Below, piece by piece: positions 6,693 to 39,283 of a DNA stretch of 64,000 nucleotides. Numbering within the stretch: the stretch's first letter is position 1; every line of letters starts with the position of its first letter. The position numbers and the translations under genes are program-made. The DNA lies in the NCBI GenBank assembly GCA_021325135.1, contig JAJPHT010000027.1, positions 43,336 to 107,335 of the forward strand, given 5' to 3'. The notes beneath the pieces were generated by a model. The model was not told the origin of the DNA. It searched no databases and saw only the letters and a list, made by a program, of their open reading frames with translations. The DNA is from Pseudomonadota bacterium (GTDB taxonomy: Archaea; Thermoplasmatota; SW-10-69-26; JACQPN01; JAJPHT01).

Positions 6693-6698
6693 GCAGGC

Positions 6699-7259: not shown

Positions 7260-7285
7260 GTCCGCCGGAGCCCGGCTGGGGTGCT

Positions 7286-9395: not shown

Positions 9396-9429
9396 AAACA
9401 TTAAGGATGCGGGGCAACGATCCCTCCTC

Positions 9430-9630: not shown

Positions 9631-10049
9631 TGCCCGACGCGGCCCCCCACGGGGGCGGGCTGCCGGTCCCTTCTGTGGACGGGCCCGACCTCGCCGACCT
9701 CAACCTCGTCCTTGCGCACCTCAAGCAGGCCGACGCCCTGAAGGCGCGCGCCGAGAAGCACCTCCGCGCCGCGGGCGCGCCCCTCGTGACCTTCGCCGTG
9801 GGCATCGAGCTTCTCCTCTGGTGCCGCAAGCACTCCCTGAGCCCCCTGGACTTCGTGGAGCGGTGCGTCACCACCTTCGAGGTGGAGGGGAGCGACGTGC
9901 TGCTGGCCGCGGCCTACGCCATGGAGCGCGACGGCATCGCGAGCCCTTTCGACGCCGTGCATCTCGCCGAGGCGATGCACCGCAGGGCGCGGCTCGTCAC
10001 GGCGGACGACCGGCTGCTGCGCTCGAAGTACCCGACCCTGGCCTACTGA
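9630..10049 (+). CDS. PIN domain toxin (VapC-like)
   Basis: DLN, E, FDAVHLA, LVTAD acidic PIN motifs. Confidence 0.8.
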   Translation: MPDAAPHGGGLPVPSVDGPDLADLNLVLAHLKQADALKARAEKHLRAAGAPLVTFAVGIELLLWCRKHSLSPLDFVERCVTTFEVEGSDVLLAAAYAMERDGIASPFDAVHLAEAMHRRARLVTADDRLLRSKYPTLAY

Positions 10050-11143
10050 GGGAAGAGCGCGGCGCGCACGCGCTCCAGCCCGGCGAGGTCGTGGACGCTC
10101 CCCTGCATCGCGGGCACGACGCGCACGGGGACGGGCATCTCCTCGCGCAGCTTGTCGGCGTAGCGCGCCTGGTCGCGGGCGAGGCCGTCGTAGAAGCGCG
10201 CGGCCTTGATGGCGTCGTCCAGGAAGCGCTCCGCCGCGTCGGGGTCCACGCGCGCGGCGGCCCCGATGCGCTTCACCGACCCGGCGCGGAAGGCGGGGTT
10301 GTCCAGCATCTCGGTGACCTCCATGCCGGGCAGGCGCGGGTGATAGCGATTCACGATGGCGGAGTCCACGCGAAGGCCGAGCGTCTGCGTGATGTCCCGG
10401 TAGAGGCGCGTGGCGCGGGGGACCGACTCCTCCTCGGCGGTGGCGACGACGTGCAGCGACGTGCGGGCGGGGTCGTTGAGCACCTCGTCCATGGCGCGCA
10501 CGCGCGTCTCCATGTCGCGGAACATCTGGTCGAAGGTGACCATGAACTCGGCCATCTCCTCGACGTACTCGTTGCTGGTCCAGCGCGTGAGGAGCTGCAT
10601 CATGGCGCCGCCCCCGAGGCGCAGGAAGCGCGTCGGCTTGAAGAGGTACTTCACGACGCCGCTCTCGAAGACGCGGATGAGCCGGCGGTTCACGCGAAGG
10701 AACTCCACCGCGTGCGCGCTGGGCGGCGTGTCCACGACGACGAGGTCGTACTGCCCGTCGGCGATGAGGTCGTGCAGGGCGCCCATGGCGACGAACTCCT
10801 CGCTGCCGGCGAACGCGTCGGAAAGCTGCTCGTAGAAGCGGCTGTTGAGGATGCGGTGGAGAGTGCGGGCGTCGTGCGCGTAGCGCTTCACCAGCGCGTC
10901 CAGCGCGGCCTTGGTGTCCAGCATCAGGGCGTCCAGGTTGGGCCGCACGTTGACGATCTCGCTGCCCAGCTTCACGCCCAGGCTGTCCGCGAGGCGGCGC
11001 GCGGGGTCGACGGTGAGCACCAGCGTCTTGCGCGTGCGCGAGGCGTGGAGCGCGCTGGCGGCCGCGATGGTGGTCTTGCCCACGCCGCCCGTGCCCAGGA
11101 AGACGACGAGCTTCTTGGTGGCGAGGGCCTGCTCCAGGTTCAT
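10043..11143 (-). CDS. ArsA/Get3-family ATPase
   Basis: GTGGVGKTT, VDPARRLADSL, DTPP. Confidence 0.9.
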   Translation of the reverse strand: MNLEQALATKKLVVFLGTGGVGKTTIAAASALHASRTRKTLVLTVDPARRLADSLGVKLGSEIVNVRPNLDALMLDTKAALDALVKRYAHDARTLHRILNSRFYEQLSDAFAGSEEFVAMGALHDLIADGQYDLVVVDTPPSAHAVEFLRVNRRLIRVFESGVVKYLFKPTRFLRLGGGAMMQLLTRWTSNEYVEEMAEFMVTFDQMFRDMETRVRAMDEVLNDPARTSLHVVATAEEESVPRATRLYRDITQTLGLRVDSAIVNRYHPRLPGMEVTEMLDNPAFRAGSVKRIGAAARVDPDAAERFLDDAIKAARFYDGLARDQARYADKLREEMPVPVRVVPAMQGSVHDLAGLERVRAALFPQ

Positions 11144-21701: not shown

Positions 21702-22574
21702 CTGCATCCGACCCTCGCCCGCATCCTCGCCCTTCTGGGGCTCGCGTCGCTGGGCGAGGGCCTCTTCATCCTCCTGCGTGTCGTCCCCCACGAGAGCGTC
21801 CTCCTGGGCGCCATCCTCGCGGCGGCCGGCGCGGTGGCGCTCCTCTTCGCGCCGCTGCCGCGCGTCTCCCGCCTCCCGCGCTGGCCCCTCGCCGCCGCGG
21901 GCGCTGCCGCGGCCCTGGTGGTGATCGGCTACGACGCGATCCACCACGCGCCCCTCGACCCGCCCAAGGTGGGCATCATCGCCCTGGGCCTTGGCCTCGC
22001 GGCGGCGTCCCCCTTCGTCCACCGCCCGCGCGTCGCGAACCCCGTCGCCTGGACCGCCGCGCTCGTGGGCGCCCCCCTTCTCGTCTGGGGCGTCCAGGCG
22101 CTATCAAAAGCCACCGTCGCGGGCATGACGCCCATGGAGCTGTTCATCCGATACGCGCTCCTGGCACCCATGGCCGCGGCGCTATCAGTGTTGGGGCGCC
22201 ACCCCGCCATCGCGGGGCAGGTCATCACCTACGACACGCCGCACGGCCCCTTCGCGCTGGAGGTGGGCGTCGCGTGCAGCGGAATCCAGGCCATGGCGCT
22301 CTTCGGCGGCGTGGTCCTCGTCTTCGTGCTCGCGGAGAAGCCGGGCTGGCGGCGCGGCCTCTTCTGGAGCGCCATCGGCCTCGCGGGCGTGTACGTCATC
22401 AACGTCGTGCGCCTCGTGGTGCTGGCCCTGGTGGGCTCGCGCTGGGGCGCGGACGCGCTGGAGTGGGTCCACGCCAACGCGGGCTGGGCCTTCTTCGTGG
22501 CGTGGAGCGCGGCCTTCGCGTGGATGACCATGGGGCGGCGCAAGGCGGGGGCGTCCGAGGGCGCAGCCCCCTGA
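21702..22574 (+). CDS. Archaeosortase/exosortase family protein
   Basis: Multi-TM; ACSG, NVVRL, WVH match the Cys-Arg-His triad; probable CTG start at 21702 after GAGGTGA. Confidence 0.88.
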   Translation: MHPTLARILALLGLASLGEGLFILLRVVPHESVLLGAILAAAGAVALLFAPLPRVSRLPRWPLAAAGAAAALVVIGYDAIHHAPLDPPKVGIIALGLGLAAASPFVHRPRVANPVAWTAALVGAPLLVWGVQALSKATVAGMTPMELFIRYALLAPMAAALSVLGRHPAIAGQVITYDTPHGPFALEVGVACSGIQAMALFGGVVLVFVLAEKPGWRRGLFWSAIGLAGVYVINVVRLVVLALVGSRWGADALEWVHANAGWAFFVAWSAAFAWMTMGRRKAGASEGAAP

Positions 22575-26825: not shown

Positions 26826-26843
26826 AGCAAACTTCGCCAACAA
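26826..26843 (+). promoter_or_regulatory. RiPP-locus motif copy 1
   Basis: AGCAA-ACTTCGC-CAACAA. Confidence 0.55.
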
Positions 26844-26891
26844 TGTTGATCATGCACAGAACGCGTCGTTCTCCCTTGGAGGCATACCTCA

Positions 26892-27143
26892 ATGCTCCGA
26901 CTTGCCATGATCGTGTTCGTGATTGCCTACGCCGTCTCTGGGCTGGGAATCGCTGCCGCGTCCGGGAACCCGGCCGTCCTGAGTCCTGTCATTGACAACG
27001 TCATCATTGACAACGTCAACGTGGAGCGTTTCGTCGAGATCCACTGCCCCATCCACGTGTCCTACCTCTGCGGCGAATGCCCCCTGTCAAGCTCGGCCAT
27101 CATGGGCGACCCCGTGGGCTACGTCGAGACGTGCGCGTGGTAA
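26892..27143 (+). CDS. Small secreted Cys-containing protein
   Basis: GGAGG RBS; signal peptide; 4 Cys. Confidence 0.65.
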   Translation: MLRLAMIVFVIAYAVSGLGIAAASGNPAVLSPVIDNVIIDNVNVERFVEIHCPIHVSYLCGECPLSSSAIMGDPVGYVETCAW

Positions 27144-27160
27144 GGCCTGGACGTGTCGCC

Positions 27161-28678
27161 ATGGGACCCCGCTTCCTCCTGATCGTGGCCGCCCTGCTCG
27201 CCCTGGCGAGCCCGTGGGCCGCGGCAGGGGGGCGCCTGGACGCGCCCGTGGCAACCCTCATCGTCAAGGACAGCCACCCCGACTCCTGCGGCCTGCCCGG
27301 ATTCTGTCCGGCCGAGGTCAACGCCTCGGCGGAGGACCCGGGCAACGCGACCGTCGACCTCTCGGACCGCTTCGAGTACGTCGGCGTCGCCACCAACGAC
27401 AGCCTCGTGGAGGACACCACGGGGTACCCGCTCCTGCCCGACTCCGGCCTCGTCGTCCACGGCCGCGACCTCTACGTCCGCCACCCGCTCACCAGCACGG
27501 CGACGCACGCCTACAACAACCACGTCCCGGACTACCCCGGGCGCGACCACGCGGGCGTCGAGATGAGCCCCCAGAACGTCACCCTCAACACGCCCGGCGT
27601 CGCCGGGAACCTCCAGACGACCTACCTCCCCTACAGCAACGACGGGGTGGGCTACGACCAGGAGGGCCCCTTCAACACGCCGGGCGGCAACGACACGGAC
27701 ACCTACCTGGGCCACCCTGAGCTGCCCTGCCACTACGTCGACACCGCCTCCTGCTGGGAGACGAGCGACGGCGCGGACGCCCAGCGCCGCAACGCGACGC
27801 CCGACGTGAACCTCGGCTTCTCCTTCAACACGACGCAGCTGGCCACCGACCCCGCGCGTCTCAACGCGTCGAACCAGTCGGGCTCGTACCCCATTGGCCC
27901 CTCGGTCCCCCCCTGGTCCTACGAGGCGCCCCAGACGATCCCGCTCCCCCTGCCGGGCCAGGCCCCGATCCCCTCCCAGGCGCTCCCCCCGGCCCCGCCC
28001 CCGGCCTCTGCCCCCGCGGCGGCGCACGGCCGCGCGCCCGCGGGCGGCCCGCGCGCCTCGGTCGCGACCGCGCTCATCGCGCCCGCGGCGCCGCGCCTCG
28101 GCGCGGCCCCCCTCGTCGCGGGGCTCGTGGGCGGCAGCGTCGTGCAGGCGCTGCTGAGCCTCTACTCCCGCATCGCGAGCCGCGAGGAGGTCCTGGACTC
28201 CCGGCCGCGCCGCGAGATCCTGGAGCGCGTCGGCGCGCACCGCGTCTGCTCGCTGGCCGAACTGACGCGCGCGACGGGCATGAACCGCAACGCCGTCACG
28301 CACCACCTCCGCAAGCTCGCGGGCTTCGGCCTCGTCCGCCTCGTGCGCGAGGACCGCCAGCTCTTCGTCATGCCCGTGGGCGAGCCCGCCCCCGGCGGCG
28401 ACGTGCCGCTGCGCGTCTCGCGCCACACGCTGCGCAGGCGCATCGTGGACGCGCTGGAGGCGCAGGGCGGGCAGATGGCCCGCGTCGCGCTCCACGATGC
28501 GCTCTCCGACGCGCCCGAGCGCACGCGCAACTACACGCTGCGCCGCATGGAGCAGCTTGGCGTGCTGCGAAGCTGGGAGGACGAGCGCGGCGAGCGCCAC
28601 GTCGCCCTCGCGCGCGCCCCCGCGGCCTCCGCCCCCGGCGCGGCCCGCGGCGCGCTCTCCTCGCCCAACCACGTCTGA
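27161..28678 (+). CDS. Membrane-anchored winged-helix regulator with large extracellular domain
   Basis: Signal peptide, Pro/Ala linker, weak TM, then LYSRI.SREEVLDSRPRREI..SLAELTRATGMNRNAVTHHLRKL and a second degenerate wHTH. Confidence 0.8.
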   Translation: MGPRFLLIVAALLALASPWAAAGGRLDAPVATLIVKDSHPDSCGLPGFCPAEVNASAEDPGNATVDLSDRFEYVGVATNDSLVEDTTGYPLLPDSGLVVHGRDLYVRHPLTSTATHAYNNHVPDYPGRDHAGVEMSPQNVTLNTPGVAGNLQTTYLPYSNDGVGYDQEGPFNTPGGNDTDTYLGHPELPCHYVDTASCWETSDGADAQRRNATPDVNLGFSFNTTQLATDPARLNASNQSGSYPIGPSVPPWSYEAPQTIPLPLPGQAPIPSQALPPAPPPASAPAAAHGRAPAGGPRASVATALIAPAAPRLGAAPLVAGLVGGSVVQALLSLYSRIASREEVLDSRPRREILERVGAHRVCSLAELTRATGMNRNAVTHHLRKLAGFGLVRLVREDRQLFVMPVGEPAPGGDVPLRVSRHTLRRRIVDALEAQGGQMARVALHDALSDAPERTRNYTLRRMEQLGVLRSWEDERGERHVALARAPAASAPGAARGALSSPNHV

Positions 28679-28785
28679 GCCCGATAACGGCCCGTGCGTT
28701 TTGATATCAGATTTGCCTTAGCCGCGGCCCCGGGCCCCTTTTCGGATCGCCTCGGGGCGCCCGGGGGCCCGGAAAGGCGCCTCGC

Positions 28786-28803
28786 GGCAACCGTGGACAA
28801 CAA
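28786..28803 (+). promoter_or_regulatory. RiPP-locus motif copy 2
   Basis: GGCAA-CCGTGGA-CAACAA. Confidence 0.55.
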
Positions 28804-28896
28804 TCGGCGCGCGAAATATCCATGTACGTGACGCCTATACGGAGTGGGTCGCGCCCGCGGCGGTCGCCCGGACGCACCATCTCAGAGGTTTCGCCT

Positions 28897-29250
28897 ATGG
28901 GTGTCAAGAAGAAGCTGAAGGCTCGAGACATCGAGCAGCTGGAGAACACGAGCATCGCGTCCGCCCTCGTCGGGAACGAGATTCTCGACGTGAACAGGCT
29001 CGTCAACGTGGACATCATCAAGACGACCTGTCAGCAGGACTCGGTCTGCGAAGAGACGGTGGAGTGCGTCGTGGTCATCACGTGCGGCTTCACGAGCTGC
29101 GTCAACACCTGCTGCCACAACTGCAGCGTCGGCACGTGCTTCTGCACCGCGGCCTGCACGCTGGTGAGCTGCGACGCCGGCACGGTCTGCGCCTGCACCA
29201 AGGGCGACTCGTGCAACGACGGCTCGGTGTGCGTCGCCCCCACCGGATAG
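28897..29250 (+). CDS. RiPP precursor A1 (117 aa, 16 Cys)
   Basis: Leader KKKLKARDIEQLENTSI; core with 16 Cys and 18 Ser/Thr. Confidence 0.88.
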   Translation: MGVKKKLKARDIEQLENTSIASALVGNEILDVNRLVNVDIIKTTCQQDSVCEETVECVVVITCGFTSCVNTCCHNCSVGTCFCTAACTLVSCDAGTVCACTKGDSCNDGSVCVAPTG

Positions 29251-29332
29251 ACCTGCCCCCACGACGTGAGAAGCATGCAGACACCCTCCTCGCCCGCACG
29301 CTCATCCGCTCCCCTTCCGGAGGACGCCCTCC

Positions 29333-30238
29333 TTGCCTGAGATCGGCGTCCTCGACTTCGGCCTCCACGAGCCTGGCGACGCCCAGCGCTCGCTGCGCAA
29401 CACCATCGCCCTCGCCCAGGGCGTCGAGCCCCTGGGCTTCTCCTCCTTCTGGGTGACGGAGCACCACCAGGAGGGCTACGCGCAGGCCAGCCCCTCCGTG
29501 CTCGCCGCCGCCGTCGCCGCCTCCACGCGCCACATCCAGGTGGGCGTGGGCGGCGTCCTCCTGCCCTACCACCCCCCCTACCGCGTCGCCGGCGACTTCC
29601 GCCTCCTCTCGGCCCTCTACCCCGGGCGCATCCACCTGGGCGTGGGCCGCGGACCCGGCGCCGGGCCCGAGGTCATCCGCGAGCTCGTCCCCGAGGGCAC
29701 GCCGGTCTCCGACCCCGCCTTCTTCGAGGCCCACGCGCGACGCCTCCTGGAGCTTCTCCACGACGAGGACCCCGCCGTGCGCGTGCGCCCCGAAGCGGCC
29801 GCGCCCCCCATGTGGGTCCTCGGGCGCAGCCCCGAGGCCGCGGCCTTCGCCGGGCGCCTGGGCGTCGGCTACGCCTACCCCGAGTTCATCATCCCCGACG
29901 ACCCCGCCGGCTCCCGCACGGGGCGCTGCTTCGACGCGTACCGCCGCGCGTTCACGCCGCGCCCAGGCTCCGAGAAGCCCCGCGCCTGCCTGGGCATCAC
30001 GGCGTACTGCGCCGCGCCCGGCGAGCCCGTGCCCGCGGCGTCCGACGCCAACGTGCACGGCACCGCCGCCCAGTGCCGCGCGGACATCCGCGAGCGCATC
30101 GAGCGCCTCGACCTCGACCTCCTCCTGCTGGGCACGCTGCGCAGCCTCTCCCTGGAGAGGCAGGTGGCCAACCTCGGCCGCCTCGCCCGGGCCCTCCGTC
30201 TCCCCCAGAACCTCCCCCCGCAACGGGTGACCCCATGA
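29333..30238 (+). CDS. Luciferase-like (LLM) flavin-dependent oxidoreductase 1
   Basis: WVTEHH, VGVGGVLLPYH.PYRVA, PGRIHLGVGRG. Confidence 0.9.
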   Translation: MPEIGVLDFGLHEPGDAQRSLRNTIALAQGVEPLGFSSFWVTEHHQEGYAQASPSVLAAAVAASTRHIQVGVGGVLLPYHPPYRVAGDFRLLSALYPGRIHLGVGRGPGAGPEVIRELVPEGTPVSDPAFFEAHARRLLELLHDEDPAVRVRPEAAAPPMWVLGRSPEAAAFAGRLGVGYAYPEFIIPDDPAGSRTGRCFDAYRRAFTPRPGSEKPRACLGITAYCAAPGEPVPAASDANVHGTAAQCRADIRERIERLDLDLLLLGTLRSLSLERQVANLGRLARALRLPQNLPPQRVTP

Positions 30239-31374
30239 CTGCCGCCACCACCTCCGCACCCGCACGCCGAAACGCGACCCTGGACAGCCTGCCCGACATC
30301 CTCGTGAAGCGCGGGCTCGTCGACCGCGCGCGCTTCGTGGACAGCTACGTCTCCATCGAGGACCGCTCGCGCCGCAACCGCAACTTCAAGGTCGTCGTGC
30401 CCGACGGCCCCAAGCTCCTCGTGAAGCAGGGCTCGGAGGGGGCCAACGGAAGCTGGGCCGCCGTCGAGAGCGAGGCGCGCCTGCTGCGCACCGCCGCCAC
30501 CGACCCCGCGTTCGCCTCCATCCGCTGGTTCTCGCCCAAGATCGTCGACTACGACGAGGAGAACCAGATCCTCGCCACCGAGCTGATCCAGCCCGCGACG
30601 ACGCTCACCAAGTACCACGTGAACCTGGGCAACATCCACTTCCCCTCCGAGGCCGGCGACACGCTGGGCCGCCTCGTCGCCTCGTGGCACAACGCCGCGC
30701 GCAAGGCGTGGAAGGGGGGCCGCCTGGAGTACGTCCACCGCTCGCAGCCCTTCGTCGCGCCCACGCTGGAGCAGCTTCGCCGCGCGCCCGCCCAGCCCAC
30801 CGACGTCCGCTCGTCGTACCTCAAGCTCGTCAAGGAGATCGTGCCCTACGAGCGCCACGTCGCGCAGATCGCCGAGTGGGAGAAGGAGCACAAGGGCGTC
30901 GGCCACGGCGACATCCGCTGGGACAACGTCCTCATCACCGAGGGCGGCGGCCGCGGCGGCAACATGAACTTCCGCCTCATCGACTGGGAGATGGCCTACG
31001 TGGGCGACCCCGCGTGGGACGTCGCGTGCTACCTGGGCGAGTACCTGCGCCTCTGGTTCATGAGCACGCTGGGGCGGCAGGTCACCAGCGTCGCGGAGGT
31101 GGAGTCCAAGGCGAAGTTCAAGCTCGCCGACACGCACGAGTCCATCGCCGCCTTCCTCGACAGCTACAGCCGGAAGTCGGAGATCGCCGCAGGCAAGAGG
31201 CCCAACCTCGTGCCGCGCCTCCACGCCTACCTCCCCTACGTCGTGCTGCTCATCTGCTACGAGTCGCTCCAGCGCCAGGCCCAGTTCCCGCCGGTCTGCA
31301 AGGTCGCCATCGAGATGGCCCGCGACGCGATCGAGGACCCCCAGACGAAGCACCACGAGTGGTTCGGCCTTTGA
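30235..31374 (+). CDS. APH-family Ser/Thr kinase, LanK-like dehydratase subunit
   Basis: SRRNRNF, LVKQ, HGDIRWDNVL, IDWE...GDPAWD; ATGA-coupled to LLM1. Confidence 0.88.
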   Translation: MTAATTSAPARRNATLDSLPDILVKRGLVDRARFVDSYVSIEDRSRRNRNFKVVVPDGPKLLVKQGSEGANGSWAAVESEARLLRTAATDPAFASIRWFSPKIVDYDEENQILATELIQPATTLTKYHVNLGNIHFPSEAGDTLGRLVASWHNAARKAWKGGRLEYVHRSQPFVAPTLEQLRRAPAQPTDVRSSYLKLVKEIVPYERHVAQIAEWEKEHKGVGHGDIRWDNVLITEGGGRGGNMNFRLIDWEMAYVGDPAWDVACYLGEYLRLWFMSTLGRQVTSVAEVESKAKFKLADTHESIAAFLDSYSRKSEIAAGKRPNLVPRLHAYLPYVVLLICYESLQRQAQFPPVCKVAIEMARDAIEDPQTKHHEWFGL

Positions 31375-31384
31375 GGTGATTGTC

Positions 31385-32392
31385 ATGAATCCTGTCCAAA
31401 AGCTCTGCGAAGAGGTCTCGTTCGTCTCCGAGACGCGCGTCCGCATCCGAACCATGGAGATCGACGGCGAGCGCCTCCAGAACCGCTTCACGAAGTCCGT
31501 CGAGGGCTACCCCGCCATCGTGGGGGGCCTGGCCCAGCTCGTCTACGACGAGTTCTACTGCGAGCGCGACCCGGGCCGCGGCGCCTACGCGTTCGTGGAG
31601 GACCGCATCCTGCGCGACGAGTTCCACCTCGCGCTGCGCCGCGCCAGCGCCTCGCGCCACATCTGGACCTCCGGATGGACGCAGGAGGCGGACCAGGGGG
31701 ACAAGCTCCTCCTGCGCAACCGCAACGGCGCCGCCGTGCTCGCGAACCGGGACGCCGTGCGCCCCGCCGCCGACGGGACGATGGCCGTGAAGGTCACGCC
31801 CGACTCCGTGCCCACGCAGGCCGGGTGGGTCTACTTCTTCGGCGAGACGGCCCACCCCGCCGAGGCCCAGACGACGGTCCGGCTCTACTGGAACCTCTGC
31901 GCGCAGGGCGCCGTGCCCTTCGCGGGGACGCTCACGCGCGTCCTCAACAAGGCCGAGGTCCCCTTCCAGATGAAGGTCGTCGAGGACCCGCAAGGGTTCC
32001 GCCGCGCGGACGGCGGCGTGCTCTACGTGCCCCAGACGAGCTGGGACGCGCTGCGCGCGAACCTCCCCGAGATCTACGCGCAGATCGGCCCCTACCTCAA
32101 GCGGAAGACGCCCCTCTTCGCGCTGGAGATGGCGCCCGGCCTGGGCCTCGCGGAGGACCCCGGCAACGGCGAGAGCTTCGGCATGTCCCGCTCGCGCCTC
32201 GTCGCGGAGGGCCTCTACGACGCGCTCAACGTCGGCGCGACCGACGCCGACGCGCGCCGCGAGGCCATCGAGCGCCGCTTCTCCCGCGCCGGGCTCGACC
32301 CCGCGCGCCCCCACCTCAACCCCGGAAGCCGCGCCGAGTACGTCGCGGCCCTTCCCGCGAACCCCATCCTTGCCCTGGGTGACCTGCCATGA
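31385..32392 (+). CDS. HopA1-like phosphoSer/Thr lyase, LanY-like
   Basis: RLYWN, FQMKV, RADGGVLY, GLGLAEDP..GESFGMSR, P.LN motifs of the HopA1 family. Confidence 0.88.
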   Translation: MNPVQKLCEEVSFVSETRVRIRTMEIDGERLQNRFTKSVEGYPAIVGGLAQLVYDEFYCERDPGRGAYAFVEDRILRDEFHLALRRASASRHIWTSGWTQEADQGDKLLLRNRNGAAVLANRDAVRPAADGTMAVKVTPDSVPTQAGWVYFFGETAHPAEAQTTVRLYWNLCAQGAVPFAGTLTRVLNKAEVPFQMKVVEDPQGFRRADGGVLYVPQTSWDALRANLPEIYAQIGPYLKRKTPLFALEMAPGLGLAEDPGNGESFGMSRSRLVAEGLYDALNVGATDADARREAIERRFSRAGLDPARPHLNPGSRAEYVAALPANPILALGDLP

Positions 32393-33705
32393 GCATCTAC
32401 CTCGAGAACGCCGCCGCCATCGCCGACCAGCTCTGCGAGGACGCCCACGTGGCCAACGGCCGCGCCAACTGGGTGTCCCGCTCCGTGCCCTACGCCCAGC
32501 GCAGGCCCGACGGGAAGTCCCCCGACCTCCTGCCCGCGCTGGAGCCGCTCAACCCGTCGTTCTATTCTGGGACCGCGGGCATCGCGGTCTTCCTCGCGCG
32601 CCTCCACCAGTACACCAAGGACCCGCGCCACGCGCGCATGGCGAAGGCGGCCATCCGCCACTCCATCGAGCACGCCTTCGACGTGGTCCCCGCCTCCGAG
32701 CGGCCCATGCCCATCGGCACGAGCTGGCAGAAGGGGTTCTACATCGGCAGCATGGGCATCGCGTGGGCCACCGAGGAGGTCGGCCGCGCGCTGGGCTCCG
32801 ACGACATCCGCCGCGAGGGGCGCAGCCTCTTCGCGCGCGTCGCCAGCGAGCCCTCCGCCACCGAGTTCGACCTCATGTTCGGCGTCGCGGGCTCCGTCGC
32901 CGCGTCGCTGAGCCTCGCCGAGCAGGGCTACCAGGGCGCCCAGGAGTTCGCCGTGGCCATGGGCGACTGGCTCCTCTCCAACGCGCGCAAGGAGGAGCAG
33001 GGCTGGTCGTGGCTCGGCTACGGCTCGTCGCCCAACGCGCCCGCGCTGCTGGGCCTCAGCCACGGCACCTCCGGCGTCGCGGTCGTGATGCAGCGCCTCT
33101 ACGAGGCCACCAAGGACGAGCGCTACCTGGAGGCGGTGGAGCAGTCCATCGCCTACGAGCGCGCGAAGTTCGACGCGCAGGAGGGCAACTGGCCCCACTT
33201 CGGCATCCCCGCGCAGCAGGACGGGCGGCCCGGCTTCTTCTCCACCTGGTGCCACGGCGCGCCCGGTGTCGGCCTCGCCCGCGCCTTCCTCTACCCCCGG
33301 ATGCGCGACGCGCGCATGCTCGACGAGATCCGCGACGCGTGGAAGAACACCGTGCGCTCCGTGGAGCTGGACCTGGAGCGGCCCGGACGCGACTTCCAGT
33401 ACTGCCACGGCGTGGGCGGCAACACCGAGTGCCTCTGGGAGATGGCCAGCGTCCTCGACCCCGCCAAGGGCGCCAAGCTCGCGCGCGACGTCGCGCAGTA
33501 CGGCGTCGAGCGCTACGGCAAGGGCGCGGCGGGCAAGTGGGGCGGGTGGGCCGGCTGGCCGACGGCCGTCTCGCACCGCTACCACCCGCCGCTGATCACC
33601 GGCCTCGCGGGCGTCGGGTACTTCCTGCTGCGGGTCCACGACCCGGCCCGCGTGCCCACCGTCCTGCTGCCCGCCGTCTCCATGGACTACGCCGCTGCGC
33701 GTTAG
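32389..33705 (+). CDS. Stand-alone LanC lanthionine cyclase
   Basis: GxxG repeats: YSGTAG, GLSHGTSG, WCHGAPG, YCHGVGG, LITGLAG; Zn ligands present. Confidence 0.92.
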   Translation: MSIYLENAAAIADQLCEDAHVANGRANWVSRSVPYAQRRPDGKSPDLLPALEPLNPSFYSGTAGIAVFLARLHQYTKDPRHARMAKAAIRHSIEHAFDVVPASERPMPIGTSWQKGFYIGSMGIAWATEEVGRALGSDDIRREGRSLFARVASEPSATEFDLMFGVAGSVAASLSLAEQGYQGAQEFAVAMGDWLLSNARKEEQGWSWLGYGSSPNAPALLGLSHGTSGVAVVMQRLYEATKDERYLEAVEQSIAYERAKFDAQEGNWPHFGIPAQQDGRPGFFSTWCHGAPGVGLARAFLYPRMRDARMLDEIRDAWKNTVRSVELDLERPGRDFQYCHGVGGNTECLWEMASVLDPAKGAKLARDVAQYGVERYGKGAAGKWGGWAGWPTAVSHRYHPPLITGLAGVGYFLLRVHDPARVPTVLLPAVSMDYAAAR

Positions 33706-33708
33706 CCA

Positions 33709-33726
33709 GGCAAGGTCCGCAAACAA
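33709..33726 (+). promoter_or_regulatory. RiPP-locus motif copy 3
   Basis: GGCAA-GGTCCGC-AAACAA. Confidence 0.5.
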
Positions 33727-33791
33727 TGGAGAAGTAGGCTCGGGACGCTATCCGGCGGGGCAGATCGCTGCCCCGTTTCAGAGGTTCGCCT

Positions 33792-34151
33792 ATGGGTGTC
33801 AAGAAGAAGCTGAAGGCTCGAGACATCGAGCAGCTGGAGAACACGAGCATCGCGTCCGCCCTCATCGGGAACGAGATCCTCGACGTGAACAGACTGGTCA
33901 ACGTCGACATCCTCAAGACGACGTGCCAGAAGGATTCCGTGTGCGAGGAGACCGTGGAGTGCGTCGTCGTCGTCACGTGCGGCATCACGAGCTGCCTCAA
34001 CACGTGTTGCCACGATTGCAGCTTCGGCACGTGCGTCTGCACGCAGGCGTGCACGGCCATCAGCTGCGACGCGGGCACGCTGTGCGCTTGCACGAAGGAG
34101 AACACGTGCAACAACGGCTCCGTGTGCGTCGCCCCCACCGGATCGTTCTAG
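33792..34151 (+). CDS. RiPP precursor A2 (119 aa, 16 Cys)
   Basis: Paralog of A1 with all 16 Cys positions conserved. Confidence 0.9.
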   Translation: MGVKKKLKARDIEQLENTSIASALIGNEILDVNRLVNVDILKTTCQKDSVCEETVECVVVVTCGITSCLNTCCHDCSFGTCVCTQACTAISCDAGTLCACTKENTCNNGSVCVAPTGSF

Positions 34152-34215
34152 GCTTGCCCCCTTCCAGCCCGAACACCTCCACCTTTCCCCCCTTGCCCCT
34201 TGCTGGTGACCGACG

Positions 34216-35187
34216 ATGGACGTAGGAATCCTCGACTTCGGAACGCGACGCGACCGATCCGACCCCCGGAGCCGGATGGAGCTCATGCTGGAGCGCGCGC
34301 TGCGCGCCGAGGCGTTGGGCTTCGACGAGTTCTGGGTCACGGAGCATCACAATCCCGAGGCCCACCACTCGGCGCCCCTCGTCGCCATCACCTACCTCGC
34401 CTCCCGCACCACGACGCTGCGCGTCGGCTCGGGCGGCATCCTCCTCCCCTACGTGAGCCCGTACCGCGTGGCGGAGGACTTCTTCGCCCTCCACTCCCTC
34501 TTCCCCGGCCGCATCGAGCTTGGCGTGGGGCCCGGCCCCGGGACGTACCCGGAGGCCGTGCGCGCCATCCTGGATCGCGCGCCCTCCGAGCCGCCGCAGG
34601 GCGAGTACCACCAGAAGGCGCGCCGCCTGGCGTCGTACCTGCGCCGCGAGACGCCCGAAGGCTTCGAAGGCCTGGAGCCCACGCCGCCCGTGGAGGCCAA
34701 GGCCCCGCCCCTCACCATCCTGGGCGTGAGCAAGCGCGCGGTGGACCTCGCCATCGAGCTGGACGCGAGCTTCACCTACGGCTTCTTCATCGCCGACCCC
34801 GACCCCCTCTACTCGCGGGCCCACGAGATCCTCTCCGACTTCCGCGCCCGCCGCCGCAGCGCGGGCCAGCGCGCGGGCGTCGCCTTCATGGCGCTGGCCG
34901 GGCGCAACGAGGCGCAGGCCGCCGAGTGGGAGCGCGTGAACCGCGGCACCGGCAGCCGCGGCCACCTCTTCGTGGGCTCCGTGAAGCAGGTCCGCACGGA
35001 GTTCGAGGAGCTTCGCGCGGCCCTCCAGCCGGACCTCGCCCTCCTGGGCATGAGCCCCGGCGTCCCCCACGCCCACCAGATGCTGTCCATCGAGGGGCTC
35101 GCGAAGGCGCTCCTCCCCGGCCAGAGCCGCAAGCAGGCGCCCGAGCCGCCCCTCGCCGTCGCACGCACACAGGAGAGCATGACATGA
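34216..35187 (+). CDS. Luciferase-like (LLM) flavin-dependent oxidoreductase 2
   Basis: WVTEHH, VGSGGILLPY.SPYRVAEDF, FPGRIELGVG. Confidence 0.9.
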   Translation: MDVGILDFGTRRDRSDPRSRMELMLERALRAEALGFDEFWVTEHHNPEAHHSAPLVAITYLASRTTTLRVGSGGILLPYVSPYRVAEDFFALHSLFPGRIELGVGPGPGTYPEAVRAILDRAPSEPPQGEYHQKARRLASYLRRETPEGFEGLEPTPPVEAKAPPLTILGVSKRAVDLAIELDASFTYGFFIADPDPLYSRAHEILSDFRARRRSAGQRAGVAFMALAGRNEAQAAEWERVNRGTGSRGHLFVGSVKQVRTEFEELRAALQPDLALLGMSPGVPHAHQMLSIEGLAKALLPGQSRKQAPEPPLAVARTQESMT

Positions 35188-35390
35188 AGCGAAGGCTGAC
35201 CGCCAAGGATGTGGAATCGCTGGAGAACACGAGCATCGGAGGATCCCTCGGCGTCCTCGACGTCGGCGTGGTCGACGCCGTCGTCACCCCCAACGTCTGC
35301 GCTGCCGGACCGGGCCCCGTCGGCCCGATCTGGGACGAGGTGACGGCGTGCATCTGCCGCTACTCGTGCGGCTACCGGAGCTACGCGTGA
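35184..35390 (+). CDS. RiPP precursor A3 (68 aa, 4 Cys)
   Basis: Leader MKRRLTAKDVESLENTSIGG; ATGA overlap with LLM2. Confidence 0.85.
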   Translation: MKRRLTAKDVESLENTSIGGSLGVLDVGVVDAVVTPNVCAAGPGPVGPIWDEVTACICRYSCGYRSYA

Positions 35391-35415
35391 GCCGGCAAGG
35401 GGACGCTCGGTCGCT

Positions 35416-35433
35416 GGCAACCGTCGCCAACAA
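35416..35433 (+). promoter_or_regulatory. RiPP-locus motif copy 4
   Basis: GGCAA-CCGTCGC-CAACAA followed by GCGTTAGGC. Confidence 0.6.
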
Positions 35434-35480
35434 GCGTTAGGCGACTGCGCCCCCATGGCGCAGCCACAGGAGAGGCTGTC

Positions 35481-35765
35481 ATGAAGCGAAGGCTGAGCGC
35501 GAAGGACGTCGAGTCGCTGGAGAACACGAGCATCGGAGGCGTCCTGGGCCTCCTTGACGTCGGGACGGCCGTCGGCGTCTACCCCGGGTTCGTCTGCGTC
35601 GGCCACACGTCGCCCCCCTGCCGGCAGGACACGACCATCGGCGTCCCGTGCCCGGTCGCCTCCGTCTGCGGCGAGACGGCGCCCTGCACCGTCGTGGTCT
35701 GCCCCGACACGTGCGCCGACACCTGCTGCGCCCACAGCGACGTGATCCGCCCCCTGGAGCCGTAG
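35481..35765 (+). CDS. RiPP precursor A4 (94 aa, 9 Cys)
   Basis: Shared leader; Cys/Thr-rich core; AGGAGAGG RBS. Confidence 0.9.
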   Translation: MKRRLSAKDVESLENTSIGGVLGLLDVGTAVGVYPGFVCVGHTSPPCRQDTTIGVPCPVASVCGETAPCTVVVCPDTCADTCCAHSDVIRPLEP

Positions 35766-35778
35766 GCGCAGAGGCCTC

Positions 35779-35796
35779 GGCAAGGGTCGGCAACAA
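35779..35796 (+). promoter_or_regulatory. RiPP-locus motif copy 5
   Basis: GGCAA-GGGTCGG-CAACAA followed by GCGTTAGGC. Confidence 0.6.
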
Positions 35797-35842
35797 GCGT
35801 TAGGCATCCAGTTTCCCATCGGGCGCCCACAGGAGAGGTTGC

Positions 35843-36121
35843 ATGAAGCGAAGGCTGAACGCGAAGGACGTCGAGTCGCTGGAGAACACGAGCATCGGAA
35901 GCGTCCTGGGCGTCATCGACACCGGCGTCGCCGACAAGCTCCTCACGGGCATCGTGTGCGCCGCCAACACGACGCCCATCTGCGATCACGGGACGGCCTG
36001 CCCCGTCGACTCGGTCTGCCACGAGACGGCGGAATGCACCATCGTCGTCTGCACCAACTCGTGCCACGACACCTGCTGCGCCTACGACAGCACGAACCTG
36101 TTCCGGCCCCTGGGGCCGTAG
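35843..36121 (+). CDS. RiPP precursor A5 (92 aa, 9 Cys)
   Basis: Shared leader and core motif. Confidence 0.9.
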   Translation: MKRRLNAKDVESLENTSIGSVLGVIDTGVADKLLTGIVCAANTTPICDHGTACPVDSVCHETAECTIVVCTNSCHDTCCAYDSTNLFRPLGP

Positions 36122-36142
36122 GTTGACCGGAGGAATGACCAC

Positions 36143-36427
36143 ATGAAGCGAAGGCTGAGCGCGAAGGACGTGGAGTCGCTGGAGAACACGAGCATCGGAG
36201 GCGTGCTGGCGATTCTGGACACGGGCGTGACCAACGTCACGACCTTCATCTGCGTCGCCAACACGACGCCCATCTGCGAGCACGGCACCGGCGTCGGGTG
36301 CCAGATCGACTCGATCTGCCACGAGACTGCGGAGTGCACCATCGTCGTCTGCACGAACTCATGCCACGACACCTGCTGCGCCTACGACAGCACGGGCGCG
36401 ATCCGGCCCGCGCTGACGTCGCCGTAG
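36143..36427 (+). CDS. RiPP precursor A6 (94 aa, 9 Cys)
   Basis: Shared leader; core nearly identical to A5; GGAGG RBS. Confidence 0.9.
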   Translation: MKRRLSAKDVESLENTSIGGVLAILDTGVTNVTTFICVANTTPICEHGTGVGCQIDSICHETAECTIVVCTNSCHDTCCAYDSTGAIRPALTSP

Positions 36428-36456
36428 GACGTCCGGAGCACGCCGAGGGGTGACGA

Positions 36457-37833
36457 TTGGAGATCGAGCGCGTGGAACTCGGGCTGGCCTCGCGGCTGGC
36501 GTTCCGGGACCTGGTCTACACGTCGGACCGGGGCATTCCCCTCGTGGGGTGCCCCGCCGTCCACCGCTACCTGGAGGTGGACCAGGACACCATCCACGGC
36601 ATCCGGGCCCTCCAGTCGACGGCCACCATCGGCGAGGCCGAGAGCCGCATCCTCGCGGAGACGGGCGAGGAGGTCGACCTCGTCTACCTCGCCAACGTCC
36701 TCCTGGACCGCGGCTTCATCGCCACCGTGGACGGCGAGGAGGTGGGGGCCGACCTGGTGAAGAAGACGCCCTCGCTCCTCACCCGCGTCCCCCCCGAGCG
36801 CGTCGCGTTCCTCCGCAACCCCGTCTTCGTGGCCGCGGTCGTGGGCCTCACCGCCTTCGCCATGCTCCTCCTCGCGACGGAGCCCACGCTGCGCCCCCGG
36901 CGCGAGGACCTCTTCCTCCTCGACAATCCGCTGGAATCGTTCCTGCTGAGCTTCGGGACCCTCCTTCTGCTCGCGGGGCTCCACGAGCTTTCCCACTACT
37001 TCATGGCGTGGAGCTACGGCGTCCGCTCCTCGTTCAGCCTGTCCCACCGGTTCTACGTCATCGTCATGCAGACGAACGTGACCAACGTCTGGACGCTCCC
37101 GCGCCGCCAGCGCATCGCCGTCTTCCTGGCGGGCATCGGGTTCAACCTCGTGGTCCTCAGCGCGGCCGTCGTGGCGCTGGCCGTCTCCGACGCGGGCTTC
37201 CATCAGCTCTCCTTCACCCAGGAGGCCGTCCTGCGCTGGATCGCCTACCTCAGCTGGATCCCCGTCATGTTCCAGTTCTTCGTCTTCGCGCGCACGGACT
37301 TCTACTACGTCCTCATGACGCTCGTGGGGGAGCGCAACCTCACGGCGGACGCGCGCGCCTACCTCCGGTTCCTCGCGGGGCGCCTGTGGCGCTCCATCCG
37401 CTCGCGCGAGCGCCGCGCCTGCCCCCACTGCCAGCGCGCCGGCATCCCGGAGGACCCGTTCTGCTACGGCTGCAAGCGGCCGCTGCCGGTGTCGGACCCC
37501 AACCTCTACCCCTTCACGTACAAGAGCCAGTGGCGGCTCCTCGTCTTCTCGGTCGTCCTCTTCCTGGGCACCATCCTGGGCACGATGTTCTTCGTGTTCT
37601 TCGTGCTCAGCAGCATGCCCAAGCTCCTCCTCTCGGGCGCCTTCGTGACGATGTACGGCTATCGCACGGGCCACTGGACGCAGATGGCGGAGGGGCTCCT
37701 CGTCGTCGCCATCGTGGGCTTCCAGGGCGCGTTCATGGCGCGCTCCATGGGCGGCAAGGTCAAGGGCTGGATCGTGGGCGCGCGCAAGCGCTGGCAGGAC
37801 CGCCGCGCAGGCAAGGCTCGCCAACAATCGTGA
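36457..37833 (+). CDS. M50/site-2-like membrane metallopeptidase with possible N-terminal RRE and a Zn ribbon
   Basis: HELSH in a TM, AGIGFN, RTDFYY, CPHC..CYGC; N-terminal strands plus three helices ending LLDRGFI. Confidence 0.8.
   Translation: MEIERVELGLASRLAFRDLVYTSDRGIPLVGCPAVHRYLEVDQDTIHGIRALQSTATIGEAESRILAETGEEVDLVYLANVLLDRGFIATVDGEEVGADLVKKTPSLLTRVPPERVAFLRNPVFVAAVVGLTAFAMLLLATEPTLRPRREDLFLLDNPLESFLLSFGTLLLLAGLHELSHYFMAWSYGVRSSFSLSHRFYVIVMQTNVTNVWTLPRRQRIAVFLAGIGFNLVVLSAAVVALAVSDAGFHQLSFTQEAVLRWIAYLSWIPVMFQFFVFARTDFYYVLMTLVGERNLTADARAYLRFLAGRLWRSIRSRERRACPHCQRAGIPEDPFCYGCKRPLPVSDPNLYPFTYKSQWRLLVFSVVLFLGTILGTMFFVFFVLSSMPKLLLSGAFVTMYGYRTGHWTQMAEGLLVVAIVGFQGAFMARSMGGKVKGWIVGARKRWQDRRAGKARQQS
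37810..37827 (+). promoter_or_regulatory. RiPP-locus motif copy 6 (inside the M50 3' end)
   Basis: GGCAA-GGCTCGC-CAACAA. Confidence 0.55.
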
Positions 37834-37868
37834 TGGCCGCCAAGGCGATTCCCCGGGCGGTGACGACC

Positions 37869-38156
37869 TTGCGTGCCATCGCCAGCATCTCCTTCGTGCT
37901 CTTCGCGCTCCTCCTGGGCGCCGTTCCCGCCGCCTCGGCGGAGCCCGTCCTCTCCAGGATCATCGACGACAACGGCCTTCCCACCGTCATCCCCCAGTTC
38001 GACTGCAACAGCAACACGCTCTGGTGTCACGTCCCGTGCGACAACGGCCCGGTGTCCGCCTTCTGCGACTACTACGGCACCCACGGCGGCGCGAGCTGCA
38101 TCATCCTCATCCGCCTCACGAGCACCTGCATCAACCCGCTCCCCGGGCAGGGGTGA
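37869..38156 (+). CDS. Secreted 6-Cys miniprotein B1
   Basis: TTG after GGTGA (alternative ATG 37833); signal peptide; ends TSTCINPLPGQG. Confidence 0.85.
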   Translation: MRAIASISFVLFALLLGAVPAASAEPVLSRIIDDNGLPTVIPQFDCNSNTLWCHVPCDNGPVSAFCDYYGTHGGASCIILIRLTSTCINPLPGQG

Positions 38157-38161
38157 TGCCG

Positions 38162-38437
38162 ATGCGCGCCCTCCTGAGCGTCTCCCTCGTTCTCCTCGCG
38201 CTCCTGCTGAGCGCGGTCCCCGCCTCCGCGGCGCAGACCGTCTCCGACCTCGGCGGCCCCCTGGACCAGTTCGTCCGCCTCGACTGCAAGACCCGCGATC
38301 CCTTCTGCCACTTCCGTTGCACGGGCGGCCCGGTCGGGCTCCTGTGCGACTACGACTCCACGCACGGCACGGTGAGCTGCGTCGTGCTGATCCGCCTCAC
38401 GAGCACCTGCATCAATCCGCTCCCCCAGCACGGGTGA
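38162..38437 (+). CDS. Secreted 6-Cys miniprotein B2
   Basis: MRALLSVSL signal peptide; GPV, HG, TSTCINPLP. Confidence 0.88.
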   Translation: MRALLSVSLVLLALLLSAVPASAAQTVSDLGGPLDQFVRLDCKTRDPFCHFRCTGGPVGLLCDYDSTHGTVSCVVLIRLTSTCINPLPQHG

Positions 38438-38442
38438 TCTCC

Positions 38443-38721
38443 ATGCGCGCCCTCCTCGGCATCCCCCTCGTCCTCCTGATCCTCCTGAGCGTCGTCCCCG
38501 CCGCCTCGGCGGACTCCGTCGTCCTCACGGACGTCCTGGACAACGGCCTCCCCACCGTCGTCCCGCGCTTCGACTGCGGCAGCAACACGCTCTGGTGCCA
38601 CTTCCAGTGCGACGGAGGCCCCGTCTCGACCTTCTGCGACTGGAACGGCTCCCACGGCCCCGCGAGCTGCATCATCCTCATCCGCTTCACGAGCACCTGC
38701 GTCAACCCGCTTCCCCAGTGA
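38443..38721 (+). CDS. Secreted 6-Cys miniprotein B3
   Basis: Close paralog of B1. Confidence 0.88.
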   Translation: MRALLGIPLVLLILLSVVPAASADSVVLTDVLDNGLPTVVPRFDCGSNTLWCHFQCDGGPVSTFCDWNGSHGPASCIILIRFTSTCVNPLPQ

Positions 38722-38741
38722 TCCCCCCAAGAGGCAAGACC

Positions 38742-38996
38742 ATGCGAACCCTGACCACCCTCTCCATCGTCCTCCTCACGATCTTCTGCGCCGTGCCCGC
38801 GTCCGCCGCGCCGGTCGCCCACGCCACCGACCTGCTCAGCCTCGACTGCGCGGCGGCGACCTCGTACTGCTGGGTCCCCTGTCGGCCCGGCCCCGTGGGC
38901 ATCATGTGTGGCCACGACACCCCGGACCACGGCTACGCCGGCTGCATCGTCTTCATCACCTACACGAGCACCTGCATCAACCCGACCCCCCTCTGA
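38742..38996 (+). CDS. Secreted 6-Cys miniprotein B4
   Basis: Signal peptide; same Cys frame; TSTCINP. Confidence 0.88.
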   Translation: MRTLTTLSIVLLTIFCAVPASAAPVAHATDLLSLDCAAATSYCWVPCRPGPVGIMCGHDTPDHGYAGCIVFITYTSTCINPTPL

Positions 38997-39007
38997 GGCC
39001 TGATATC

Positions 39008-39283
39008 ATGCGCGCCACGATCGGAATCGCCCTCGCCCTGCTGACGGTCCTCTTCGCCGGCCTCGCCTCGGCGGAGCCCCTCGCCTACGTGATCGAAAGG
39101 TCCGTGATCGATCCCTCGCAGATCGACGCCGTCTGCGTCGTGCCCTCCTGCTGGCCGACCTGCGATCCCGGCCCCGTGGCCGTCTGGTGCAACCACGACA
39201 CGCCCGGGCACGGCCGTGCGGCCTGCCTGGTGTTCGTCACGTTCACGAGCACCTGCATCAACCCGCTCCCCCAGGGCTCGTGA
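39008..39283 (+). CDS. Secreted 6-Cys miniprotein B5
   Basis: Signal peptide; GPV, HDTP.HG, TSTCINPLP. Confidence 0.88.
   Translation: MRATIGIALALLTVLFAGLASAEPLAYVIERSVIDPSQIDAVCVVPSCWPTCDPGPVAVWCNHDTPGHGRAACLVFVTFTSTCINPLPQGS

Follow-up and report, generated by a model that had tools for sequence, protein, structure and literature searches.

Six short genes, A1 to A6 (Table 1), lie among lanthionine-forming enzymes in the window analyzed here, a stretch of 64,000 nt from an uncultured archaeon (assembly GCA_021325135.1, contig JAJPHT010000027.1). They encode peptides so rich in Cys that the locus raises the question of how these residues are used: in thioether rings, in disulfides, or in metal binding. 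Our sequence comparisons and structure predictions suggest that A1-A6 are fairly probably the precursors in a lanthipeptide pathway of class Vb type, in which core Ser/Thr would be dehydrated by a kinase (LanK) and a lyase (LanY) and joined to Cys by a stand-alone cyclase (LanC). The precursor family itself is real and is new to the literature and libraries searched, combining a new leader, a new coupling to a peptidase and archaeal hosts with known chemistry.

A shared leader and Cys-rich cores

All six open reading frames (ORFs) are preceded by a purine-rich, Shine-Dalgarno-like stretch and match the leader pattern K[KR][KR]LxA[RK]D[IV]ExLENTSI, as a first-pass annotation of this DNA had proposed. 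The tail that it appended to this pattern (SI..L..[LI]D) fits none of the six as written, the gap from I to L being three residues in A3-A6 and longer in A1/A2. In a six-frame scan of the 3.77-Mb host genome, LENTS-type motifs were found in A1-A6 alone. A1 and A2 differ at 20 codons synonymously and at 17 non-synonymously, with every Cys fixed; because synonymous change separates these paralogs, A1-A6 are coding genes. Also as annotated, the core motif C-x2-[DA]S[VI]C-x-ET-x2-C and the tripeptide TCC were found in five of the six peptides, A3 having neither, and the Cys counts given for A1/A2 (16) and A4-A6 (9) were reproduced from the ORFs. As a family motif, the C-x2-[DA]S[VI]C-x-ET core did not hold up: it is carried by the paralogs found here, and only echoes of it appear in L023, one of the other loci that carry the leader. 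Cys makes up ~18% of the cores, which are acidic, contain almost no Lys or Arg, and include CC and CxC motifs. The C-termini vary; none is a Cys, and there is no invariant C-terminal Thr.

The annotation had not recognized the leader family. This leader, of the kind found in peptides made ribosomally and then modified post-translationally (RiPPs), has no matching model in Pfam or NCBIfam, and neither library holds a model that fits the precursors. When the precursor profile was searched against PDB sequences, the best match was only E 0.45, the ESM Atlas yielded no usable match for A1, and a single-sequence AlphaFold prediction of A1 was uninformative (score predicted for the local distance difference test, pLDDT, 38).

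Register of Cys and Ser/Thr

A Ser or Thr had been noted near almost every Cys, and this was borne out as a near one-to-one pairing. In A1 and A2, 15 of the 16 Cys each have a Ser/Thr partner of their own located 3 to 5 residues downstream (in A1, from C45-S49 to C112-T116), an arrangement referred to here as Cys-first. The reverse pairing (-3 to -5) reaches 9 and shuffled cores 8.6-8.9, and none of 200 shuffles reached 15. In the unrelated cores of L023, 11 of 13, 10 of 11 and 9 of 9 Cys pair Cys-first vs. 2 each in reverse. The ratio of 18 Ser/Thr to 16 Cys previously given for the A1 core includes two Thr ahead of the first Cys, from which point on it is 16:16. The very high ring number anticipated from this ratio is plausible given the 15/16 pairing, but the full 16 is unlikely because one Cys of a CC pair has no partner; 15 is the maximum under the best register. 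One or two Cys in each of A4-A6 are also partnerless.

Over the window's precursors as a whole, 55 of 63 Cys were paired Cys-first (shuffle 51%, z 8.7) and Ser/Thr stood at -3 to -5 for 60%, while in 25 precursors of other loci the corresponding values were 168 of 246 (shuffle 44%, z 9.7) and 47%. Cys with no near downstream Cys allow the two directions to be read separately. Of 12 such residues in the window, 11 have Ser/Thr at +3/+4 (5.0 expected) and 3 at -1/-2 (5.1 expected); at other loci, the isolated Cys gave 26 of 49 (20.0 expected, p 0.044) and 14 of 54 (21.7 expected), respectively. The last Cys is followed by Ser/Thr at +3/+4 in all six peptides. As a control, 19 other Cys-rich stretches of the host genome were flat (22% vs. 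23%), and the secreted mini-proteins adjoining the cluster showed no register bias. The test can detect direction, since two loci read in the usual Ser/Thr-first sense, namely L019 (a 39-Cys precursor, 97% of Cys) and L035 (15 of 18). Cores outside this locus do not align; across 40 precursors with the leader, the median of (S+T)/Cys is 1.08 and Ser/Thr recur 3-4 residues past Cys.

Comparison of paralogs showed no Cys changes, and register Ser/Thr were exchanged only for one another (1 of 16 in A1/A2 and 3 of 7 in A4/A5), while other core residues changed at 15 of 43 and 22 of 39 positions, respectively. Because register residues interchange only between Ser and Thr while other core residues change, selection acts on the beta-hydroxyl, favoring dehydration over metal or disulfide binding, neither of which needs a hydroxyl. 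In a quick tree, the Cys-first loci group on a single LanC branch (Shimodaira-Hasegawa-like approximate likelihood-ratio support, 95), which includes L011 and L015 with their short C-x3-[ST] precursors, and the Ser/Thr-first loci lie outside it; labels are shared by kin, so this correspondence is suggestive but weak. Overall, the pairing makes a Cys-first ring direction likely. We would predict up to 15 rings in A1/A2, 7-8 in A4-A6 and 2 in A3, with 0-4 overlaps and most rings 0-2 residues apart, and give an even chance that at least ten of them close in A1.

Modification enzymes and the proposed pathway

The cluster runs A1, LLM1, LanK, LanY, LanC, A2, LLM2, A3-A6 and protease, LLM1 and LLM2 being luciferase-like monooxygenases. 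This is a class Vb layout, i.e., LanK, LanY and LanC with LanD missing; no LanD decarboxylase is encoded near the cluster, and the genome's only PF02441 genes are on other contigs. The catalytic motifs of LanK, the CaoY-equivalent residues of LanY, and the Zn ligands and catalytic His of LanC are all intact. LanK matches the LxmK model at E 5e-20, under the equivalog cut-off. The four LanY residues are spaced 31/10/7, vs. 32/10/7 for R187/K219/R229/Y236 of CaoY, the first three of which were shown to be important by mutagenesis (PMC9486802). LanC carries SHG at 224, WCHG at 287 and YCHG at 338, with ligand roles assigned from NisC (PMC9889658). LLM1 and LLM2 score far higher with the MsnO8 model than with models for cofactor F420 enzymes, and because their best scores are to the MsnO8 family we read them as flavin oxygenases and not D-amino-acid reductases. 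The F420 ligase CofE was not found in the host genome, which is 94% complete. Monooxygenases of this kind are present in only some of the leader-family loci.

The protease closing the cluster combines a RiPP recognition element (RRE) with an M50/site-2 intramembrane protease. It matches the daptide_HExxH model at E 5e-13, with 48.9 bits against a cut-off of 300 bits. In its predicted model (pLDDT 83.9), the RRE aligned with that of lasso B1 (Z 8.7, root-mean-square deviation [rmsd] 2.6, 79 residues aligned) and with PqqD (Z 8.1, rmsd 2.4, 87 aligned), and the protease fold with RseP (Z 8.3, rmsd 5.0, 164 aligned; all by VIA-align), while Foldseek with the whole protease as query returned no match at E 0.001. 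HExxH and D281 are invariant across 10 orthologs. A predicted complex of leader and RRE scored 0.38, vs. 0.07 for the best control, with at least 79% contact agreement among runs and partner pLDDT of at least 49. This was graded as weak support, the mark being reached by 58 of 80 solved pairs and 2 of 110 mismatched ones, and scores at or below 0.60 by only 7 of the 80 solved pairs and both mismatches.

We propose that the acidic D[IV]ExLE helix of the leader recruits the LanK-LanY pair, as CaoK binds CaoA. By precedented chemistry, core Ser/Thr would then be phosphorylated by LanK and eliminated by LanY to dehydroalanine or dehydrobutyrine (Dha/Dhb), and Zn-LanC would join each Cys to a Dha/Dhb 3-5 residues downstream, giving small, mostly non-overlapping rings. 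The flavin monooxygenases may serve as optional tailoring enzymes, most likely converting thioethers to sulfoxides as the GarO analogy suggests, although such sulfoxidation is possible rather than probable. The RRE would bind the LENTS-[IV]AxAL extension of the leader, with cleavage in the hydrophobic spacer beyond it, at the membrane; here co-occurrence is observed, binding is weakly predicted and the cut site is inferred. Leader removal by this protease is very likely. The resulting set of acidic, polycyclic products would be small and would share its regulation, through a membrane-bound winged helix-turn-helix (wHTH) protein, with secreted Cys mini-proteins. These products would most likely act outside the cell, in antagonism or signaling; this is the weakest step, and we lean only slightly toward it. 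A bolder possibility, which we consider less likely than not, is that a mainly Thermoplasmatota branch of LanC processively closes Cys-first rings. A1/A2 would then each yield a single peptide of ~75 residues with ~15 tandem thioethers, some as sulfoxides, released at the membrane by the RRE-site-2 protease, and ring direction would be set by cyclase lineage and switched within the leader family.

Host and sequence authenticity

The host belongs to the Thermoplasmatota (GC 71.6%) and to a class of 21 genomes. The window encodes a valyl-tRNA synthetase and a D-aminoacyl-tRNA deacylase, both of archaeal type, and a motif scan of the host genome found RadA, TFB and EF2 motifs present and the RecA motif absent. 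In another, non-independent assembly record the region differs at 1 base of 20,354. Logan contigs of a possible source run (soil), likewise non-independent, cover nearly the whole region with 0 differences. Short pieces identical to A1 and A4-A6 occur in three runs of a second study (mine metagenomes). No RNA dataset was among the runs listed as carrying this DNA, which is no guide to expression. As far as can be seen, the region is no assembly artefact.

The leader family in other loci

Forty precursors with 4-21 Cys each were collected from 13 contigs, the invariance of LENTS in this set being partly due to the search pattern. The hosts are mostly archaeal where assignable, with at least one bacterial. 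The homologs were obtained from LanY neighborhoods and a 50% library: LanY neighbors led to L017 and L018, peptide profiles to L022-L024, L026 and L028-L030, and a phylum search to G247 and G313, the genome with L035. A first leader profile search of a 5.8-billion sequence set returned the window's own peptides only, and a degenerate leader DNA pattern gave one match in genome contigs and none in metagenome or viral contigs. A prevalence of leader homologs apart from modifying enzymes, which would have counted against the first-pass annotation, was not seen. We found the RRE-protease and LanK on all nine other leader contigs that extend far enough, and LanY and LanC wherever the sequence reaches. 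Five of these contigs (L023, L024, L028, L029, L030) were located via the peptide alone, L017 and L018 via LanY, and L034 and L035 via both genome searches; L022, L026 and L039, each under 2 kb, are outside this count.

A leader profile applied to 401 genomes of the phylum gave strong matches in four, two of them absent from the profile, and all four encode HopA1; their very high M50 scores arise by construction. A fifth HopA1 genome (G002, of the host's genus) has short precursors only and no RRE-protease match. A weak leader match in G339 was rejected as a false positive within a HAD-like ORF. In L017, bacterial-type genes for aspartate kinase and ASD begin 180 nt past LanC, so the leader family extends beyond archaea. 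The L017 enzymes group among archaeal ones in quick trees, and this placement suggests gene transfer, with the direction not fixed. The LENTS loci do not form one clade in the LanY quick tree.

Three further LanK/LanY/LanC (K/Y/C) loci of the host genome and two of G002 have precursors of 36-83 aa that keep the acidic D/E-I-E-x-L-E helix; the NTS-[IV]AxAL extension and the RRE-M50 protease are absent from all five. Since short precursors without the extension are also without the protease, we infer that the helix serves LanK and the extension the RRE.

Other features of these loci were recorded. In L017, a LENTS precursor (5285-5590) and the RRE-protease (7200-8824) are frameshifted, through sequencing error or decay, and one of its precursors is encoded on the other strand. 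A 57-aa lanthipeptide-like precursor with another, LxLxKET-like leader directly precedes the LENTS precursors of L018 (6204-6377). L034 (6133-6678) and L035 (6112-6735) encode long LENTS precursors of 181 and 207 aa, with 21 and 18 Cys and 7-residue repeats; L035 has four additional precursors, three with an SECSCGC motif. On the 1.6-kb L026 contig, an apparent universal-stress-protein start (1445-1576) follows four LENTS-type precursors; any modifying enzymes would lie beyond the contig's ends. The L019 contig (46% GC) has, at 5343-10342, a K/Y/C operon after a 467-aa precursor, with PatG-like, tyrosinase and ferritin-like genes upstream. Distant RRE-M50 genes (E 1e-29 to 1e-68) occur at G006:C144, G007:C22, G010:C93, G012:C270, G162:C133, G278:C13, G278:C25 and G313:C31, several in frames of 800+ aa; all of these genomes except G313 are without a HopA1 or LENTS-leader match, and the genes perhaps belong to other archaeal RiPP classes.

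Table 1. Coordinates of the window's features and of short-precursor loci in the host genome (G000) and in G002.
Feature	Position	Strand	Match
Small 4-Cys protein, signal-peptide-like N-terminus, after motif copy	26892..27143	+	
GCAA-N7-MAACAA, six copies, candidate operator	26827, 28787, 33710, 35417, 35780, 37811 (within 26827..37827)	+	
Membrane-anchored protein, C-terminal wHTH, candidate locus regulator	27161..28678	+	PF12840 E 2e-10
Precursor A1, 117 aa, 16 Cys, 15 Cys-first C-x2..4-[ST] pairs	28897..29250	+	
LLM1, MsnO8 family, candidate thioether sulfoxidase	29333..30238	+	TIGR03558 192.6 bits, cut-off 166.95; best PDB 4US5, E 2e-34
LanK, APH-fold Ser/Thr kinase; K64, HGDxxxDN at 224, DWE at 250	30235..31374	+	PF01636 E 3e-14
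LanY, HopA1-type phospho-lyase; R169, K200, R210, Y217; start possibly 31385	31376..32392	+	PF17914 E 1e-35
LanC, stand-alone cyclase; Zn ligands C288, C339, H340; catalytic H225	32389..33705	+	PF05147 E 6e-47
Precursor A2, 119 aa, 16 Cys, 85% identity to A1, same 15 pairs	33792..34151	+	
LLM2, MsnO8-like	34216..35187	+	TIGR03558 162.9 bits, just below cut-off
Precursor A3, 68 aa, 4 Cys, core unrelated, two C-x2/3-S pairs	35184..35390	+	
Precursor A4, 94 aa, 9 Cys, 7 pairs	35481..35765	+	
Precursor A5, 92 aa, 9 Cys, 8 pairs	35843..36121	+	
Precursor A6, 94 aa, 9 Cys, 8 pairs	36143..36427	+	
RRE-fused M50/site-2 intramembrane protease, candidate leader peptidase; RRE ~6-94, HExxH 176, D281, CxxC..CxxC ribbon	36457..37833	+	
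Five tandem secreted-type 6-Cys mini-proteins (paralogs), TSTCxNP ends, signal peptides, after motif copy	37833..39283	+	
K/Y/C cluster, short precursors	L009:7419-10951 (G000 contig C42)		
K/Y/C cluster, short precursor with two tandem cores	L010:9315-12663 (G000 contig C7)		
K/Y/C cluster; one precursor per strand, both C-x3-[ST] twice	L011:9361-12680 (G000 contig C50)		
K/Y/C cluster with adjoining ABC transporter, precursor not spotted	L014:8529-13340 (G002)		
K/Y/C cluster, three short precursors	L015:8713-12000 (G002)		

Alternative explanations

Several points weigh against tandem Cys-first rings made by a class Vb pathway. Because Cys are spaced 4-6 residues apart, positions +3 to +5 of one partly equal -1 to -3 of the next, and pairing at -1 to -3 is enriched too (12 of 16 in A1; z 2.8 and 5.8). 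Paralogs are non-independent data. L018, L028 and L030 show a weak register, and in loci of the f30 family it runs the other way. Ser plus Thr number fewer than Cys in 10 of the 40 homologs (ratio as low as 0.55), which in some of them leaves too few partners for every Cys to form a thioether. The cluster contains no ABC transporter or LanT. Complexes of RREs with leaders have already been solved, so the result for the predicted complex may reflect likeness to these. As for precedent, the three-ringed mSmoA was the sole characterized class Vb product as of 2024 (PMC11186320), and in helical lanthipeptides solved by nuclear magnetic resonance the Cys comes after its partner (PMC12359204).

The shortage of Ser/Thr in those ten homologs, the partnerless Cys of A4-A6, the CC and CxC motifs and the acidic cores nearly free of Lys/Arg would suit a partly cyclized hybrid, with only a few rings formed, the remaining Cys engaged in disulfides or available to bind Cu/Zn/Cd, and some Dha/Dhb left unused; such a product would be a metal-binding or disulfide-braced lanthipeptide, and archalan gamma does combine thioethers with a disulfide (PMC12144867). 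However, nearly all Cys of A1/A2 and L023 have an in-register partner, register Ser/Thr are retained as hydroxyl residues, and odd and even Cys counts are equally frequent (20:20), and we consider the hybrid unlikely. The scarcity of ring overlaps could instead mean that a long core is split after cyclization to release several peptides of one or two rings each, leaving no many-ringed molecule; the repeats in the L034 and L035 cores and the two tandem cores of the L010 precursor point the same way, but most rings of A1-A6 are 0-2 residues apart, neither a spacer nor a cleavage signal recurs between them, and the cluster has a single protease, so this is quite improbable. The enrichment at -1 to -3 would in turn be explained if the same enzymes made very small Ser/Thr-first rings, with Ser/Thr 1-3 residues ahead of Cys as in archalan gamma. 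SC and TC dipeptides are common here, and adjacent Ser-Cys rings are known in haloarchaeal class II peptides (PMC12144867). Nonetheless, separable Cys favor +3/+4 over -1/-2 both in the window and elsewhere, and conserved Ser/Thr beyond the last Cys would be left partnerless, which leaves this pattern rather remote. Finally, the Cys content of the cores might suggest metallothionein-like or disulfide peptides that remain unmodified and are simply neighbors of the enzymes. Searches for metallothionein gave no match in Pfam, NCBIfam or PDB up to E 1-10 (in Pfam up to E 1, 24 members), which alone leaves room for one; linkage to K/Y/C/M50 is constant, the leader is conserved while the core varies, and selection acts on Ser/Thr hydroxyls, all of which render this highly improbable. 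The sequence evidence thus favors tandem Cys-first thioether rings rather than a metallothionein.

Comparison with known systems

The peptide mSmoA, presumably PDB entry 8CWX, offers the comparison for class Vb. As described in PMC11186320 and PMC12328550, its SmoK/SmoY/SmoC system likewise has split LanK and LanY, a stand-alone LanC and no enzymes for aminovinyl-methylcysteine (AviMeCys). The present system differs from it, as there described, in its archaeal host, six precursors, leader without a library match, Cys-first tandem register, RRE-site-2 protease and MsnO8-like monooxygenases, and in its core Cys content, which ranges from 4 to 21 over the family, vs. three rings in mSmoA. Class Va (cacaoidin, lexapeptide, pristinin A3, triantimycins) shares the APH kinase, a HopA1 lyase whose catalytic residues are those of CaoY, and a short acidic/hydrophobic leader. 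However, a class Va (lanthidin) assignment was rejected here because LanC is present, there is no nearby LanD, and no C-terminal Cys; an AviMeCys end and a conserved leader Tyr like Tyr-17 of CaoA are also lacking, and an F420-dependent LanJ is probably absent.

The rings of geobacillin I and maddinglicin, both class I, are Ser/Thr-first. Like the predicted products of A1/A2, these peptides are ring-rich and have rings closed by a stand-alone Zn-LanC (PMC9889658), but they depend on a LanB dehydratase and bear half as many rings as are predicted for A1/A2. Up to 15 rings would be about twice the seven of the most ring-rich lanthipeptides in the surveyed literature, a comparison resting on the prediction of 7 rings in MadA (PMC9889658) and on general knowledge, as a literature search for ring-number records was empty. 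Among archaeal thioether peptides, the haloarchaeal class II archalans, ciblans and larlans include single Cys-first rings (ciblan A1 Cys7-Thr9, larlan A2 Cys3-Thr9), but these are LanM-made, were found only in Halobacteria in that survey, and have 2-3 rings in their structures (PMC12144867); class V, HopA1 and LanC are unmentioned there. In the literature surveyed, we found no example of a stand-alone LanC producing a whole chain of Cys-first rings.

The daptide protease DapP/MpaP also combines an RRE with M50 HExxH, in clusters with several precursors and an acidic leader motif, there ELExMEAP (10.1101/2023.03.08.531785). The present protease differs in its score, far under the daptide cut-off, and in its coupling to lanthionine enzymes; the cluster has no DapBCDM enzymes and the precursors no invariant C-terminal Thr. 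A luciferase-like flavin enzyme, GarO, also occurs in the actagardine cluster, where it oxidizes a methyllanthionine (10.64898/2026.08.26.747419). This likeness is an analogy and not a sequence comparison, the best solved match of LLM1 (4US5) being an MsnO8-type enzyme.

Candidate regulation and neighboring genes

Six copies of the motif GCAA-N7-MAACAA are present in the window, where 0.01 would be expected, and L029 has five against an expectation of 0.04; the exact motif is absent from the remaining leader loci. The window's copies precede A1, A2, A4, A5 and two secreted-peptide units, the first five by position lying 46-93 nt upstream of the gene. A seventh match (G000:C39:37782) lies ~5.5 kb ahead of the window in a lower-GC stretch, with no link to the cluster seen. 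The candidate wHTH regulator has an ortholog in L029 (E 4e-33). Scans for sigma-70 promoters and terminators, whose models are unsuited to an archaeon, were empty. The five 6-Cys mini-proteins have no LENTS leader and no family match, and the ESM Atlas gave no usable match for the one searched; they are possibly immunity or co-secreted factors. An archaeosortase-like gene lies at 21834-22574, and many Cys-rich proteins without ring register are encoded on G000 contigs C6, C15, C21, C23, C38 and C44.

Significance

As of 2024, class Vb had one characterized member, a three-ringed product from Streptomyces, and the archaeal lanthipeptides surveyed were of class II and from halophiles. The family described here supplies 40 natural substrates with one leader, freely varying cores, and two groups of opposite register with separate LanC branches, making it testable whether ring direction and pattern are set by the cyclase or by the substrate. 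A tolerant set of three enzymes that lays down many small rings in series would, if true, be useful for peptide stapling. Our findings also point to the RRE-site-2 protease as a lanthipeptide leader peptidase, and to specialized metabolism in uncultured Thermoplasmatota.

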